Shown in pieces: positions 58,430 to 64,000 of a stretch of 64,000 nucleotides of DNA. The position numbers and the translations under genes were made by a program. The notes under the pieces are model-generated. The model was given only the letters and a program-made list of their open reading frames with translations, was not told the origin of the DNA and ran no database searches. Origin of the DNA: an uncultured Desulfobacter sp. (GTDB lineage Bacteria > Desulfobacterota > Desulfobacteria > Desulfobacterales > Desulfobacteraceae); assembly GCA_963665095.1 (NCBI GenBank), contig OY762069.1:384001-448000 (forward strand), in the 5' to 3' direction. Each line of letters begins with the position of its first letter. Position 1 is the first letter of the stretch.

Positions 58430-58672
58430 ACATCTATGCATGACCGAGCCTTTGAAGGGCATAGGTATTTACACTTTTAATAAAAAGCAGACACGCTTCC
58501 CGGATATGCTGACAGCATCAGTCAGAGTAAAAAGTCGGTACCCAAAATTAATTTTCAGTGCTATTCTTATATCTGGTAGCACGCCAGCACGATCTTAAAT
58601 CATATTCTCATTCATACAGGATAGTATCTCCCCACTGGTTTAACCGGCGGGAGAGCTTTGACATTTACGACT

Positions 58673-60217
58673 ATGTTAGAATTACATTTAAACAACCTGC
58701 CTTCTCTTTCGGTTTTTCTGCTTATTATTGCAGGTATTGATCTTTTTTTTGCTGTTATTGCATTTGTCCGCCGCAGGGCTGTCGGTGCGGGTTCCTTTCT
58801 GCTGCTGATGCTGGCAATGGGGGTTTATGCCGGCGGCTATGCTTTTGAGCTGGCTTCTTCAGATCTTACTACAGCCCTGTTTTTTTCAAATGTCCAATAT
58901 CTGGGGATTCCCTTTGTCGCTTTTCTGCTTTACTCTCTTATCTGGAAATATCTGCGTCATACCAATGCAATGCCTTTAAAACTGGTTATCCCTTTGCTAA
59001 TTGTTCCCGTTGTCACTTTTTTCTGTCACCTGACATGTGACGGGCATAATCTTTTTTATATCAATCCTCAGCTTGGTTTTTATAATGGGCTGTCCATCTT
59101 GTCTTTTGAAAAAGGAATATGGAAACACATAGACCATGCATATACTTTTTCCCTTGTTATAATGGCATTGATCCACTGTATTGTCCGTTTTATAAAGGAT
59201 GAAAAATACCGTAGTCACATTGCCCTGCTGATTGCTGCAACCGTTTTCCCCTTTGGGGGGTTCCTTTTATACGTTGCCGGCCTGGCACCGGAACATCTCG
59301 ATATTACCCCGCTAACCTTTGGACTTTCGTGCCCGTTTTTAGCGATTGCCATTTTTCATCTGTCTTTGTTCGATATCGTACCTGTTGCCAGGGATCATAT
59401 TTTTGAAAATCTGGATAATGGGCTTCTGGTAACAGACTCGCTGGACAGGCTGATTGATTATAATAAATCCATCATAAAAATTTTTCCTGAACTTGAGAAA
59501 TTTCGTGTGGGTGTTTCGGTCAAGTCTTTAGCTGTCATTAATGGGGGCCGGACAATTGATCTTTATCAGCTCTTAAATACGGACAAAACATTTGTGGCAG
59601 AGCAGGGGGAGGCGAAGAATTATTATAGTATACGAAAAAACATCATATCTCAGACAAGACAGTTTTACGGTGGAATAATTTATATAGTCGCAGATATAAC
59701 TGAAGAGAAGACCCTTGAGGCAAAACTTCACACCATGGCAACAACAGACCCCCTGACAGGAATTCAAAACAGACGAAACCTCCTTGAAATTGGAGATAAA
59801 GAGCTAAAGCATTCTGCAAGATATAAGCGGGATCTCAGCGTTCTGTTTTTTGATATTGATCATTTCAAAAAAGTAAATGATTCCTGGGGGCATCTGGCTG
59901 GAGACAGGGTATTAATCGAAATAGCACAGACCTGTACAAAACAGATTCGGGAAAGCGACTCGCTTGGCCGGTACGGCGGAGAAGAGTTTGTTCTTATTTT
60001 ACCAGAGACATCGTATGACGCTGCTATCCGGGTTGCTGAAAAGTTACGCGGCTCTATTGCCAAAATGACAGTTATATTTGAACAGCATAAAATCAAGGTA
60101 ACAGCCAGTTTTGGTGTGGCTGCTTTTAAAAACGGTGAAACCCTTGATGACCTGTTTAATCGCGCAGATCAGTTTTTATATCAAGCAAAAAATACGGGAA
60201 GGAACCGTGTTTGTTAG
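58673..60217 (+). CDS. membrane diguanylate cyclase (HisKA_7TM-PAS-GGDEF)
   Basis: 7TM sensor, PAS-like segment, TDPLTG..NRR, DIDHFK.VND..GH..GD, RESD I-site, GGEEF. Confidence 0.94.
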   Translation: MLELHLNNLPSLSVFLLIIAGIDLFFAVIAFVRRRAVGAGSFLLLMLAMGVYAGGYAFELASSDLTTALFFSNVQYLGIPFVAFLLYSLIWKYLRHTNAMPLKLVIPLLIVPVVTFFCHLTCDGHNLFYINPQLGFYNGLSILSFEKGIWKHIDHAYTFSLVIMALIHCIVRFIKDEKYRSHIALLIAATVFPFGGFLLYVAGLAPEHLDITPLTFGLSCPFLAIAIFHLSLFDIVPVARDHIFENLDNGLLVTDSLDRLIDYNKSIIKIFPELEKFRVGVSVKSLAVINGGRTIDLYQLLNTDKTFVAEQGEAKNYYSIRKNIISQTRQFYGGIIYIVADITEEKTLEAKLHTMATTDPLTGIQNRRNLLEIGDKELKHSARYKRDLSVLFFDIDHFKKVNDSWGHLAGDRVLIEIAQTCTKQIRESDSLGRYGGEEFVLILPETSYDAAIRVAEKLRGSIAKMTVIFEQHKIKVTASFGVAAFKNGETLDDLFNRADQFLYQAKNTGRNRVC

Positions 60218-60259: not shown

Positions 60260-60803
60260 TCAATCTGAACGTATCCGTAAAAATGAGGGGAATTTGGGAA
60301 TTTTGTTTTTCGTAAAACCGTAATATTTAAAAGTAACCTGGGTGCCAACGGGCGGCGGATTCTGCCTGTTTTGTTCAGTGAAGCCTGTGCCCAGTTTGAA
60401 TTGAATGCCATTTTCAAGCCGGATGGTCAGGGAGCCCATTACCCCGGCAAATTTTCCTTTTCCTGGATTGATGGCAATGACTTCTCCTTCCATATCCCGG
60501 GTCTCCTTTATTTTGAGGACATATGGGCTTCGTCCCGTATGGTAGGCTTTTTGGGGATCCTTAACAATAACCCCTTCTCCGCTTCGGGATGCCACCTGCT
60601 TAATAAACTCATCAAGATCAGGCAGGTCGCCAATCAGGGTTTGGTGGATGATGTGTACGAATGGGTCGGGGTGGGCGGCAAACCAACGCGTTGCTTTTTC
60701 CAGGCGCTGGAAGAAATCGCCCTTTTGGTTGGGAACTTCAAAAATATTGTAGGTGATTTTTTCCCAACCTTTTCCCGGGTGCCGGTCAAGAACCACAGAC
60801 TGG
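60260..60803 (-). pseudogene. ATP-dependent DNA ligase (minimal LigE-like), 3' fragment
   Basis: GEGVIVK, Y..GRS..LK.K and OB-fold FKLGTGF...FPSFLRIR; 5' part cut off by the transposon. Confidence 0.9.
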
Positions 60804-60882
60804 TGTTGAGTCGCATTTTATCCTGACTTAAATTTTCTAATTATTTTGAACAGATTAAATCTTTTCCATATTATTTAAGACA

Positions 60883-61065
60883 GCTACAGAAGTCGCTGCG
60901 CTCCTTCTCAGTAGGTTTTTAAGGCATAGGCAGAACAGCTTGAATAAAGCAGAAAGGGGAAGCAGGTAATCCCCACTTCCCCTGGCGCATTATTCAATGC
61001 TGCCTGCTTCCGGCTATCCCTTACCAGGTTGCTCCTCAGCAGAGCCCGGCTCCGTTTCACCGAAA
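60883..61065 (-). ncRNA. candidate structured RNA/DNA region inside the transposon's 3' end
   Basis: Non-coding, GC-richer than its flanks, several adjacent hairpins; strand assumed from transposon transcription; no family assigned. Confidence 0.35.
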
Positions 61066-61096
61066 TCGTAATATTCTGCTCTATGGCTGTTTTTTC

Positions 61097-61906
61097 TTAA
61101 AAAATTTCCGATGAAGCAATGCGGACATGCTCTGCAGATACCGTCATTGATTTTTCTGCCGCAGCAGCAATCAATGAGCCTCTGGCAAGATTATTCGCCT
61201 TTCGTAAAAGGCCGCCGGAGCCTTGATGAATCGCAGTCACCGCCTGGTCAGAAAAAAAGTTGGTGTCAACACCGCATAGTTTTAAATGATGGATCAGGTA
61301 AGTTTTCATTCCAGCCACATCCAGACCATCCAGATGGCTTTTAGCCACAATCCTGGATGCAAACGGGATTGACGTCCGGTACTGAAGCTTATCTATCAAT
61401 GTCGGCTGACCTGCAAGGATCACAGGCAGCCAGGGCATGGCGTCTTTTTCAAATTGAACCAGGGTGTGAAGTTCGGCAAAGACTTCCATGCGAAGCAGAG
61501 ATGCCTCATCTATAATCAAAACGGTTTTGATCTTTTTTCCCAGGACGAATTCACGTATTTCATTTTTAATAATGGAGATCATAACAGCGCGGGACGTCGA
61601 TGTCCGCTCTATGCCCAGTTCTTCAACAATCTGCCGGTAAAGTTCCATGATGGAACCGCTTGAGGCCGTAACATAAAAGACTTTGTATTCCGAAGGGTGT
61701 AGGGATGAGGCGGCATACCTTAAGGCGGTGGACTTTCCGCTGCCCACATCCCCTGTGATAACCGCACTGCAGCCAAGTCTTAAGGAATAATCAATCCGAT
61801 TTTTAACGCCCGAGACCTCCGGGGTGACCAGGATATCATTGATTTCTATCTGCGCCGGGAAGGCCTCCCTATATAAGCCAAAAAAGGTACGATACATTTC
61901 ACTCAT
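61097..61906 (-). CDS. ExeA-like AAA+ ATPase (transposition helper; TnsC/MuB/IstB analogue)
   Basis: Walker A GDVGSGKS, Walker B LIIDEA, ILAGQP; ATGA overlap with the transposase. Confidence 0.92.
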   Translation of the reverse strand: MSEMYRTFFGLYREAFPAQIEINDILVTPEVSGVKNRIDYSLRLGCSAVITGDVGSGKSTALRYAASSLHPSEYKVFYVTASSGSIMELYRQIVEELGIERTSTSRAVMISIIKNEIREFVLGKKIKTVLIIDEASLLRMEVFAELHTLVQFEKDAMPWLPVILAGQPTLIDKLQYRTSIPFASRIVAKSHLDGLDVAGMKTYLIHHLKLCGVDTNFFSDQAVTAIHQGSGGLLRKANNLARGSLIAAAAEKSMTVSAEHVRIASSEIF

Positions 61907-63159
61907 AACAGTTGCCCTCCCTTGTAATTTGAGGGTTCAGGCATAATCCGGATATCATTTTCGTTCCAGCGGTGCCGCTTGACCCGACAGTTCACAGCAA
62001 GGTCCACCGGGGTTAACAAGCCATAAGACTTTGCTTTATAGATAACTTCAGCCTGCAAAGGGGTGTCCTCATGGTACTTTACATCCACATGTCTGCCGAT
62101 CAGCGCAACCGGGGCCTCAAACATGTTGCCGTCAAGGGTGATGGTTCGGTCCTTTGCCACCTTGCGCCGGGCGGTTTTGCGGAAGTGGTCTTTCAGATCC
62201 GGTGGGGCGGTACGGATGCACTCCATGGCCGAGGTAAATCTTTTAAACGGTGATTCGCCTGTGGAGCTGTGTTTACGCTGATGGTACTCATTATGAAGCC
62301 ACTTCTCAAATGCCCCATTCAGATCATCCAGGGTCTTACCTGTAAATCTTTGCAGAAACTGAAGCCGAACCGTTCTGAACCAGCGCTCGATTTTACCTTT
62401 CCCCTGGGGCTTATATGGCCTTGCATGGATTAAAGCGATGGACAGAGACGCTGCTACATATTTTAAATGATGGGATCTGAACGCAGGACCGTTATCTACA
62501 TACAGCTTGCGGGGAAGCCCACGGCTCAAAAAAGCCTGCTCCAGCACCATAAGATAGGTCTTCAGATTCTCAGATAAATAAAAACCTGCAGCCGTAACCA
62601 GCCTGGAATGATCGTCCATAATGGCAATCAGGTACGTTTTTCTTTGCTTATCCTGAACCAGGACTGTAGGGCCGTGCATGACGTCGCTTTGCCACATATC
62701 ATTGGGGTGCGGGGCTTCAAACTTTCTTCTATCCTCTGGCCGGGCCGTGTTCATTAGCCCCCGGCCGCGTAAAAAACGGTATACACTGGATGGACTGTAT
62801 GTCTGGCATGTAGTTTTTTGAAGTGAACAGATCAATGTATCGACTGTCGCATCAGGCTGGTCTAACCGGAGTTTGATTAGTTGAGATGCAGTCTCGTCAT
62901 CGAATACCCTTGATTTTCCCTGGTCTGAACGGTCTTTGGGGTAAAGAGACTCTATTCGACCGTTATACTGCCGGACCCATCCCAGAATCGTACTTCTGGA
63001 AAGCCTGGTCCTTCCAGAATACGGGATGGACCATTTGCGGGCGCACTTCTGCTGTAAAATTCGTTCTTTTTCACCGTAATCAAAATTTGTTCCGGTCACA
63101 AATTCACAAATGACCCCAAACCTGAACACGGCAACCTCTTTTTTCTGATTTTCTGTCAT
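61903..63159 (-). CDS. DDE transposase (rve core, Mu-transposase-like C-terminus)
   Basis: N-terminal HTHs; WQSD, YVDNG and KGKIER (D,D,E); R.V.KD.TI.L.G..FE C-terminal barrel. Confidence 0.95.
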   Translation of the reverse strand: MTENQKKEVAVFRFGVICEFVTGTNFDYGEKERILQQKCARKWSIPYSGRTRLSRSTILGWVRQYNGRIESLYPKDRSDQGKSRVFDDETASQLIKLRLDQPDATVDTLICSLQKTTCQTYSPSSVYRFLRGRGLMNTARPEDRRKFEAPHPNDMWQSDVMHGPTVLVQDKQRKTYLIAIMDDHSRLVTAAGFYLSENLKTYLMVLEQAFLSRGLPRKLYVDNGPAFRSHHLKYVAASLSIALIHARPYKPQGKGKIERWFRTVRLQFLQRFTGKTLDDLNGAFEKWLHNEYHQRKHSSTGESPFKRFTSAMECIRTAPPDLKDHFRKTARRKVAKDRTITLDGNMFEAPVALIGRHVDVKYHEDTPLQAEVIYKAKSYGLLTPVDLAVNCRVKRHRWNENDIRIMPEPSNYKGGQLL

Positions 63160-63262
63160 ACTTCCTCCTTAAAATTTGGTTCTAAGGGCTTGTATGACAG
63201 TATGATCCTTCGGTAAATCACAGCCTTCGGTAGGGTGGTTTAAACCTGATCCAGCCCCATGG

Positions 63263-63709
63263 TTAAATTGAACTGGTAACCGGGATTTTACCCATACCGA
63301 TTAGCTTGATAAAACCAGCAACCACACCTTTGTCCCAACTGTTGGACAGGTAGGCCGCTATATTTCGTTTCAATGCAGTAAACCAAAAATGCTGTCGACT
63401 CCAGGAGAGTTCCGGCAGATACCGGTCTGTGTATAGACGACTCATAATGCTGGTAAGGATTTGCCAGATACTGGCCTGGAACCTCTTGAAAAAACCATAT
63501 GGCTTCAATTTGAATACGGTTTTGCAATAGGGGCAGCGATATCGCTTCAAATACACCCCTTGATCAAATCCATCAAAAAAGGAGAGTACAAAGCCGTGTC
63601 CCCACAGCCTGGAGTCGTTGCAATGTGGACATCGTGACGGTTTTGGCCATGTAAAATTTTTGCCCTGCTTGAAAATTTGCTTGATATCAGCTTTGACCTT
63701 TATTATCAT
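63263..63709 (-). CDS. small Zn-ribbon protein carried by the transposon (DUF6431-like)
   Basis: CPHC...HG...RYRCPYC followed by a helical region; first gene of the element. Confidence 0.8.
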   Translation of the reverse strand: MIIKVKADIKQIFKQGKNFTWPKPSRCPHCNDSRLWGHGFVLSFFDGFDQGVYLKRYRCPYCKTVFKLKPYGFFKRFQASIWQILTSIMSRLYTDRYLPELSWSRQHFWFTALKRNIAAYLSNSWDKGVVAGFIKLIGMGKIPVTSSI

Positions 63710-63901
63710 TTTTATGGTTGTTTTGGGATTTTATAAATCCCGGTCTTAAGGGCGAGGCTCTGCAAAGCTTTTCGCCCTTTTCATTTTTGTCAGAATGCTT
63801 TGATCAGAACCTGTACAGGATAATTTGAGAAAAATGGAACTTTGTCAATTTAATATGAAAAATTTGGCGGGTTTTTGTTCAGATTATTTCGGGAATCTAC
63901 A

Positions 63902-64000
63902 CTGGATATATTCATACTCCCCACGGCCACTCCACAGTTCTCCGTCCAGTTCAAAGGAGGGAAAATTTTTTATAAACCATGCTGGGGGATGCAGTACCAC
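63902..64000 (-). pseudogene. ATP-dependent DNA ligase, 5' fragment (runs off the window)
   Basis: Minus strand reads VVLHPPAWFIKNFPSFELDGELW.GRGEYEYIQ, including ligase motif III LDGEL. Confidence 0.9.

Follow-up and report, generated by a model that had tools for sequence, protein, structure and literature searches.

A covarying module with promoter-like signals at the non-coding end of an insertion sequence, tentatively read as an RNA-primed origin exchanged among mobile elements

What does an insertion sequence (IS) carry in the long non-coding DNA between its last gene and its tip? The question is raised by a stretch of 64,000 nucleotides from an uncultured Desulfobacter sp. (hereafter the window, meaning this whole stretch), in which a three-gene IS has split an ATP-dependent DNA ligase gene, with CCAG duplicated at the insertion. 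A preliminary description had noted about 290 bp of non-coding DNA between the ATPase stop and the terminus, and 293 nt (61097 to 60804) are indeed found there. It had also seen more structure than a terminator needs and suggested a resemblance to the ends of other IS elements; the first impression is borne out by a conserved multi-stem core with strong covariation, and the second by matches in other IS. Its proposal of a cis-acting or guide-like RNA fared unevenly. An element-borne RNA is likely, because strong covariation is joined by promoter signals that place the start at the 5' stem, and the analogy with bridge and omega RNAs fails, given that the loops are invariant and the neighbouring enzymes unrelated.

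The module structure is real and larger than had been flagged. It occupies about 190 nt (60884-61101) inside the right end of the host IS, with the minus strand, which is transposase-sense, as its functional strand. The module is an accessory portable cassette, made of promoter-like boxes, a folded core, a long stem, a conserved box and often a GNA mini-hairpin (Table 1).

Table 1. Coordinates of the host IS, its genes and the parts of the module in the window.
Feature	Position	Strand	Details
Host IS, 3,098 bp	60804..63901	minus	Ends TGTAGA...TCAACA
orf1, 148 aa	63263..63709	minus	CxxC motifs; no Pfam or NCBIfam match
DDE transposase, 418 aa (rve)	61903..63159	minus	Top NCBIfam match IS481
AAA_22 (ExeA-type) ATPase, 269 aa	61097..61906	minus	Domain match
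Predicted promoter	61073..61101	minus	Weak -35 TTTAAG (61096-61101), 17 bp, -10 CAGAAT (61073-61078)
Conserved core	61008..61064	minus	P1; purine-rich 9x9 internal loop (UGAAACGGA / AAGGGAUAG); P2; CUC/A loop; P3 with GAGG tetraloop
Long stem P4	60928..61007	minus	Arms 60990-61007 and 60928-60947; encloses terminator-like hairpin
Terminator-like hairpin inside P4	60955-60983	minus	Weak U-run
Conserved box ATGCCTTAAAAACC	60914..60927	minus	3' foot of P4; can pair with loop strand AAGGGAUAG
3' hairpin	60884..60914	minus	AGAAG-GA-GC-GCA-GC-GA-CTTCT core: GNA triloop and tandem G.A pairs
Right end of host IS	60804..60880	minus	Short repeated motifs, present at left end too (by eye)
ATP-dependent DNA ligase gene, 3' part	60260..60803	minus	5' part resumes at 63902 (63902-64000 in window)

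The host insertion sequence

The transposase scores 208.7 bits against the IS481 NCBIfam model, which is below the family cut-off of 224. The host IS resembles IS21 in its extra ATPase, its orf1 and its variable duplications, and by analogy we infer that it forms circles, because of this IS21-like layout together with the variable target duplications. Fourteen copies are present in the genome, 13 whole and one interrupted; a 1.3-kb insertion (C1:1967155-1968466) lies near the left end of one copy. Target duplications flank 12 of the 13 whole copies and measure 4 bp in six cases and 5 bp in the other six. In several of them TGG or CCA occurs, a hint that the element may weakly prefer certain targets. 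The repeated motifs of both IS ends are likely to be the transposase binding sites, as predicted from their sequence. The right end also holds a consensus-like promoter on the plus strand (TTGAAC-17-TATTAT, 60846-60874), which points into the IS, antisense to the module. Adjoining the insertion is a diguanylate cyclase gene with HisKA_7TM and GGDEF domains (58658-60217), which is ordinary.

A second three-gene IS of the same genome (L015, C1:6070729-6074269; 3,541 bp, 13 copies) is 80% identical to the host IS over 197 nt, only in this non-coding stretch. Its transposase is 27.6% identical to that of the host IS, and its ATPase gives no tblastn match to the host-IS ATPase at E<1e-4. This second IS makes 3-7-bp duplications and has a short fourth ORF before the module; short ORFs of this kind also follow the ATPase in L313 and L315. 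The two families, with 27 matches, are the only ones in the genome that carry the module, the other multicopy IS, including IS21-like and IS3-like elements (named by inspection), being without it. No right-end/left-end junctions of either module-bearing family were found in the genome.

Fold, promoter signals and conserved box

The sense strand of the module folds with z = -4.1, and none of 200 shuffles was as good, against z = -2.7 and 2 of 200 for the opposite strand. The predicted transcript (60910-61067) folds with z = -5.3, and the core folds poorly when treated as DNA. Covariation among homologues, a check which the preliminary description had proposed, proved strong: across 111 distinct cores, both sides change in 12 of 16 pairs, standard pairs fill 94.0% of cells (74.7% when shuffled) and the covariation score is 0.549, compared with 0.178 for shuffled cores and no more than 0.119 when the registers are slid. 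Loop letters and three P3 pairs were fixed by the search pattern, which left P1 and P2, where the covariation lies, free. The loop letters, fixed in this way, are near-invariant across the 111 cores, and one position pair of the 9x9 loop is A.G in 68, G.A in 55 and G.G in one of 124 matches. A search model, R1, matches the window at 61002-61071 with 75.5 bits.

Most of the stems first proposed stand. The CTAC-AGAAG/CTTCT-CA-GTAG arms are present at 60884-60914 and the perfect AGGGGAAG/CTTCCCCT arms at 60955-60983, and TGCT/AGCA is a genuine covarying stem. Two pairings have to be replaced: GCATT takes part in the long-range pairing of P4 and does not bind the AATGC next to it, while GAGC and GCTC contribute their bases to the covarying stem GCCGGG/CCTGGT and so are not the pairing that is conserved. 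P4 follows the core directly, varies in length and ends two or three bases before the box, which keeps its place at the P4 foot whatever that length.

The predicted promoter occupies a position common to 112 homologues. The best -10 score, 6.33, falls 18-19 nt ahead of the loop (14 control windows give 3.4-4.5), and the -35 score is maximal at a 17-bp spacer. These positions put the predicted RNA start on the 5' arm of P1, at about 61066 in the window. Taken on its own, the window's copy (TTTAAG-17-CAGAAT) fails a strict consensus scan. Copies from Bacteroidota carry TAnnTTTG, the promoter consensus of that phylum, in place of the usual promoter box. These signals bear on the simplest explanation, in which the structure would be a mere 3' terminator, or an mRNA-stabilising structure, for the three-gene transcript. 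The terminator-like hairpin within P4 would fit such a role, as would the plain hairpin that module-free homologues have at that place. The promoter signals, the antisense orientation of 29 of 42 IS3 copies, and the invariant core upstream of the hairpin, a separate multi-stem core which is what is conserved, all argue against it, and we consider it very improbable.

The box was no part of the search pattern. Its consensus is ATGCCT-Y-R-R-AAA-A-C, and of 109 copies 95 have it on the module strand and two on the other. Apart from a mismatch in the middle, the loop strand AGGRAU complements AUGCCU. In the main set this pairing does not covary (6.34, against 6.39 for shuffled partners), the letters being invariant there and so uninformative. 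Rows with AGG in the loop have CC at the box in 115 of 123 cases; in seven divergent copies (all six parsed AGC rows and L427) a loop G>C change is accompanied by C>G in the box, and in a phage copy AGGGGCAA and TTGCCCCT are complementary at eight of eight positions. The divergent copy L428 breaks the complementarity, and a flanking extension of the pairing shows no covariation. The loop-box pairing may be a pseudoknot or an alternative fold. Pairing between the promoter region and the box was also tried (-8.41 kcal/mol, against -7.80 +/- 0.22 for mismatched partners), and is not used here, the difference being small and confounded by base composition. An ATG-CCT mini-ORF was rejected too: its third codon is often a stop, its start varies and no ribosome-binding site precedes it.

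In the minimum-energy fold of the predicted transcript, the loop strand is paired to the box instead of P1 being formed. Such exclusive folds would suit an attenuator or a riboswitch-like leader that gates an outward or antisense transcript, and IS-borne mobile attenuators are described in the accessible text of PMC2965389. The terminator-like hairpin inside the module, and the gene with a ribosome-binding site that follows the phage copy, would agree with this. There is no consistent downstream gene, however: transcription from the module would exit the element, enter the 3' end of the transposase gene or meet a terminator, which makes a leader of this kind unlikely.

Small hairpins flank the box. 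RNA-type tetraloops (UUCG, GNRA or CUUG) lie between core and box in 12 of 93 copies (3.5 when shuffled), a modest enrichment, and GNA triloop hairpins follow the box in 24 of 93 (2.8 when shuffled), including six of the tandem-GA form (none when shuffled); these enrichments refer to single-base shuffles and to related sequences. The triloops are found mostly in sense-oriented copies; they are missing from most antisense copies, where a downstream GNA hairpin is not consistent (31 loci). The hairpin at 60884-60914 of the window is of a form that we take to be a single-stranded-DNA-type mini-hairpin. Judging by sequence, we read the 5' part of the module as RNA and its 3' hairpin as single-stranded DNA.

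Spread among insertion sequences, plasmids and phage

The core pattern gave 122 loci in 4 of 64 GTDB parts, from which about 2,000 stretches are estimated, and the record titles include Acidobacteriota, Planctomycetota, Bacteroidota, Desulfobacterota-type, Cloacimonadota and Armatimonadota. Locus L110, probably a chance match, was left out of later counts. Hosts were assigned for 62 of 80 long-flank loci, the remaining 18 often being cut by contig ends. These hosts, which are not independent since some are copies of one element, comprise IS3 (42; 13 sense and 29 antisense), IS110 (5), IS21 (3), ExeA-type (3), ISL3 (2), IS481-like (2), IS1202-like (2) and, once each, an IS256 variant, a tyrosine integrase and DUF1670. 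IS3 and IS110 hosts carry the module in both orientations, a few copies have no transposase nearby, and 51 copies are present in a single genome (G303). None of IS4, IS5, IS630, IS66, IS200/605 and Tn3 was a best match among 131 neighbouring ORFs. Some ten copies behind an ExeA-type ATPase (L410, genome G304) have the canonical internal loop, a replaced P3 hairpin and no clear box.

Three-gene elements homologous to the host IS were found at 16 loci (ATPases 40-65% identical), and of the 13 that are informative two have the module; the others mostly have a plain hairpin at the site or go straight to the element end. The module is thus accessory to the host IS. It is also widespread but rare, model scans having found it in 2 of 151 genomes of its own phylum and in 4 of 151 of the phylum of G302, where one match (L429, inside a gene) is probably false. 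After the three-gene elements of L308 and L319, an ORF that resembles by eye a RepB-type primase stands in the module's place, possibly as a protein solution to the priming need that is proposed below.

The distribution weighs heavily against a guide or bridge-type RNA serving the element's transposase. Such an RNA would be expected to have a large internal loop flanked by stems and to lie in a non-coding end, as the module does. The preliminary description had asked whether a variable loop matches target sites; the loops are near-invariant, even across phyla, while the targets of the 14 host-IS copies differ. The same fold accompanies DDE as well as DEDD enzymes, which are unrelated, and is present on transposase-free plasmids. 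Because 11 of the 13 informative close homologues lack the module, and because its hosts are unrelated, it is no dedicated partner of the three IS proteins, and a guide function is extremely unlikely. A selfish passenger that moves between elements by recombination, without benefit to them, would account for the patchy presence, for the few copies away from any transposase and for the finding that two IS of one host, otherwise unrelated, are here 80% identical. At the module borders no target duplication or mobility signature was noticed, and the strong purifying covariation, together with a promoter type that adapts to the host phylum, makes a mere passenger quite improbable.

A Bacteroidota variant was found at 123 metagenome loci (about 290 estimated). 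The 74 records analysed, namely 73 loci that are circular or >1.5 kb and the plasmid L040, include 30 circular molecules of 2-5.4 kb. In all 39 records with a RepL-like gene the module shares its strand with rep, from which its distance varies; the RepL/MobV plasmids that carry it are one related group, and it lies directly behind rep in two further RepL plasmids. The RepL/MobV plasmids also have Rep and iteron-like repeats, and rolling-circle nick-site motifs were not consistently found in them. In plasmid copies, a clear terminator ends the predicted RNA before the box, which also occurs inverted or upstream, and the hairpin arms covary across up to 900 bp of cargo. Inverted GGTTTTCAGGCAT...ATGCC(TG/GAAG)AAAACC arms flank swappable cargo in the 2-5.4-kb Bacteroidota-type RepL/MobV plasmids (L185-L262, L040), and in L228 the inner part is inverted, as might be expected of a box that serves in recombination or template switching. 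A partial variant on pOR1 (L180:14170-14235), between mobilisation genes and a small regulator gene, has kept P2-P3 and the Bacteroidota-type promoter, with a different internal loop. Five further variants, compared with plasmids by BLAST, yielded four Bacteroidota plasmid types and otherwise chance matches.

One phage has a divergent module among exonuclease, Sak4-like and ERCC4 genes. The surroundings of this copy (L365/L367, around L435:2863-3100) are a DNA-metabolism gene block, with several GNA mini-hairpins. Two loose viral patterns gave 11 and 13 loci, all chance matches, and a specific pattern gave four viral loci, those examined being IS- or integrase-associated. With a P3-only pattern, 40 loci were obtained, many by chance, and no convincing copy in an ssDNA phage.

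A possible priming function and its relation to known systems

Being common to unrelated transposases, plasmids and phage, the module must act through the host, and its exchange between unrelated mobile elements implies that it does so through a conserved host factor. The explanation that we favour, tentatively and as a possibility rather than a probability, is that it lets host RNA polymerase make a primer RNA for circle replication. IS3, IS21, ISL3, IS256 and IS110 elements form circles. According to the accessible text of PMC7780238, the circles of copy-out elements need host replication; copy-out is described in two preprints as well, and IS110 can use this route too. On the circular form of the element, the module would work like a miniature ColE1 origin. 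The RNA would begin at the 5' arm of P1, and its loop strand AGGRAU would pair with ATGCCT, in the RNA or in the displaced DNA strand, so that an R-loop would be held open. Host DNA polymerase would then extend the RNA 3' end near AAAAC, and the GNA hairpin on the displaced strand would load the lagging-strand primosome. What the element would gain is more, or longer-lived, transposon circles. The free orientation of the module fits an origin that acts on a double-stranded circle. Also in favour are the promoter signals, the same-strand box with its likeness to pT181 and ColE1, the matched loop and box changes of divergent copies, the RNA-type tetraloops ahead of the box and GNA triloops behind it, the circle-forming IS hosts, the rep-strand position on plasmids and the gene setting of the phage copy. 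A broader proposal, somewhat more doubtful, is that many unrelated IS families captured an RNA-primed origin common to small plasmids and phage, which would turn their circles into transient mini-replicons; that the captured origin would involve an IS-encoded primer RNA of a new fold, clamping its own origin box, is a part to which we give the same limited credence.

Several observations stand against a primer RNA. The module is dispensable, as its presence at 2 of the 13 informative loci indicates, and 37 of 96 copies have a U-run behind the inner hairpin. A cis-acting primer leaves unexplained the plasmid terminator before the box and the inverted or upstream boxes, and the RepL/MobV plasmids, a single related clade, already have Rep and iteron-like repeats. 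Most antisense copies are without the GNA hairpin, the loop-box pairing does not covary in the main set and is broken in L428, and the resemblances to the pT181 RSB and the ColE1 origin concern motifs of 10-14 nt. Moreover, silencing would be needed for an R-loop origin present in 27 chromosomal copies.

For these plasmid features, the terminator before the box and the boxes sometimes inverted or upstream, a trans-acting sRNA comes close behind the primer RNA, without being probable in itself. It would be an RNA of about 110-150 nt that ends at the inner terminator-like hairpin and binds some host factor that is conserved, such as a defence, silencing or addiction target, to the benefit of any carrier element. 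The module has its own promoter signals, a free orientation and position, clear terminators on plasmids and an accessory status, and its purine-rich loop, invariant but for an A.G/G.A covariation seen in 123 of 124 matches, is of a kind typical of protein-binding surfaces. A precedent is Ssr9 of ISPpu9, dispensable for transposition in the account available. A trans-acting sRNA does not explain why the box is fixed on the same strand at the P4 foot, why there is a GNA hairpin, or why no cut-and-paste hosts occur in the sample.

A single-strand origin (sso/ssi) has also been weighed. In this case the module would fold in displaced ssDNA, and RNA polymerase or the primosome would bind the RSB-like box, giving an antisense primer. 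The plasmid box ATGCCGAAGAAAAC is one base from the pT181 RSB and lies at the base of a long covarying hairpin, the module always keeps to the rep strand while its distance from rep varies, as is described for sso, and GNA/tandem-GA hairpins are present. In the accessible parts of the sources, pSN2/RepL plasmids use ssoA (PMC5703833), the RSB is the RNA-polymerase-binding part of an sso (reviews), and sso are orientation-specific. By contrast, IS3 and IS110 hosts carry the module both ways, and a -35 box spaced by 17 bp implies a promoter that works on double-stranded DNA. In pT181 the RSB is on the 5' arm of its hairpin, whereas the box is here on the 3' side; the core folds poorly as DNA, and model R1 has no match in pT181 or ColE1. 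On account of the double-stranded promoter and the free orientation we prefer transcript-primed synthesis, and rate a single-strand origin as rather unlikely. Counting this variant too, a priming module of one kind or the other has just under an even chance.

The accessible literature on copy-out-paste-in elements attributes circle completion to host replication, and no element-encoded signal was found described in it. If a swappable priming module exists, this step can be tested directly, and IS circles and plasmids become less sharply distinct. Even if the priming model is wrong, there is here an uncatalogued, richly covarying predicted RNA with its own promoter signals, in about 2,000 GTDB stretches from many phyla. 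Its presence would also account for spurious 'GETEAGSAG' tails at the ends of some transposase frames.

An Infernal search against Rfam, as the preliminary description had proposed, gave no match on the module: with Rfam 15 there was none at E<=1 in the window and none in 20 homologous loci, where two weak matches lie outside the module. Known self-cleaving ribozymes were likewise without a match in the window and the 20 loci. Likenesses to hammerhead, HDV, twister, T-loop and loop-E motifs were considered and tentatively set aside. No published description of the motif was found in the accessible literature; the supplement of PMC11109978 (250 mobile/repeat candidates) may contain it.

Among described systems, bridge/seek RNAs (IS110/IS1111) and omega RNAs (IS200/IS605) are similar in being structured non-coding RNAs in an IS end, with a large internal loop. 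The module differs in having no programmable loop or fixed enzyme partner, and it is dispensable, being an extra in some IS110 elements. A bridge RNA goes with a fixed DEDD IS110 recombinase; here 5 of 62 assigned loci are IS110 and the host IS in the window has a DDE enzyme. As for omega RNAs, no TnpB, IscB or Y1 family was found among the 131 neighbouring ORFs. Ssr9 of ISPpu9, a promoter-bearing sRNA downstream of a transposase and unneeded for transposition, is comparable to the module; reports of it come from three Pseudomonas putida strains, and it has boxes of its own with which it moves, whereas the module crosses many IS families and phyla. ARRPOF, GEBRO and PAGEV are orphan structured motifs suspected of a part in plasmid replication, as RNA or ssDNA, and the accessible text does not describe them from IS elements (PMC5737381).

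The closest likenesses are with priming origins. The box resembles both the ColE1 origin GCCTATGGAAAAAC and pT181 ATGCCGAGAAAAC, the latter lying on the rep strand where the ssoA hairpin has its base. With ssoA/palA (pT181, pSN2/RepL) the module shares an RSB-like box at the foot of a long imperfect hairpin, carried by the rep strand of RepL plasmids with no fixed spacing from rep. It differs in its extra folded core, its double-stranded-type promoter, the box on the 3' arm and both orientations in IS, and occurs in Bacteroidota, Acidobacteriota, Planctomycetota and others rather than in staphylococci. ColE1 replication is primed by RNA II, a transcript of about 550 nt. RNA II, origin and primosome site follow the same order on one strand as is predicted for the module, that is, promoter, folded RNA, hairpin, GCC..AAAAAC (L183:1183-1200) and a GA-GC-GNA-GC-GA hairpin (L183:1331-1346) with the same GNA mini-hairpin form. 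The R1 scan gave no sequence or structure match between the two, and no RNA I or Rom was seen; the module, in contrast, is about 150 nt long and lives in IS elements and beside Rep genes. Since it could be assigned to none of these known classes, we rate the module as new in kind, though it may work like known priming origins.
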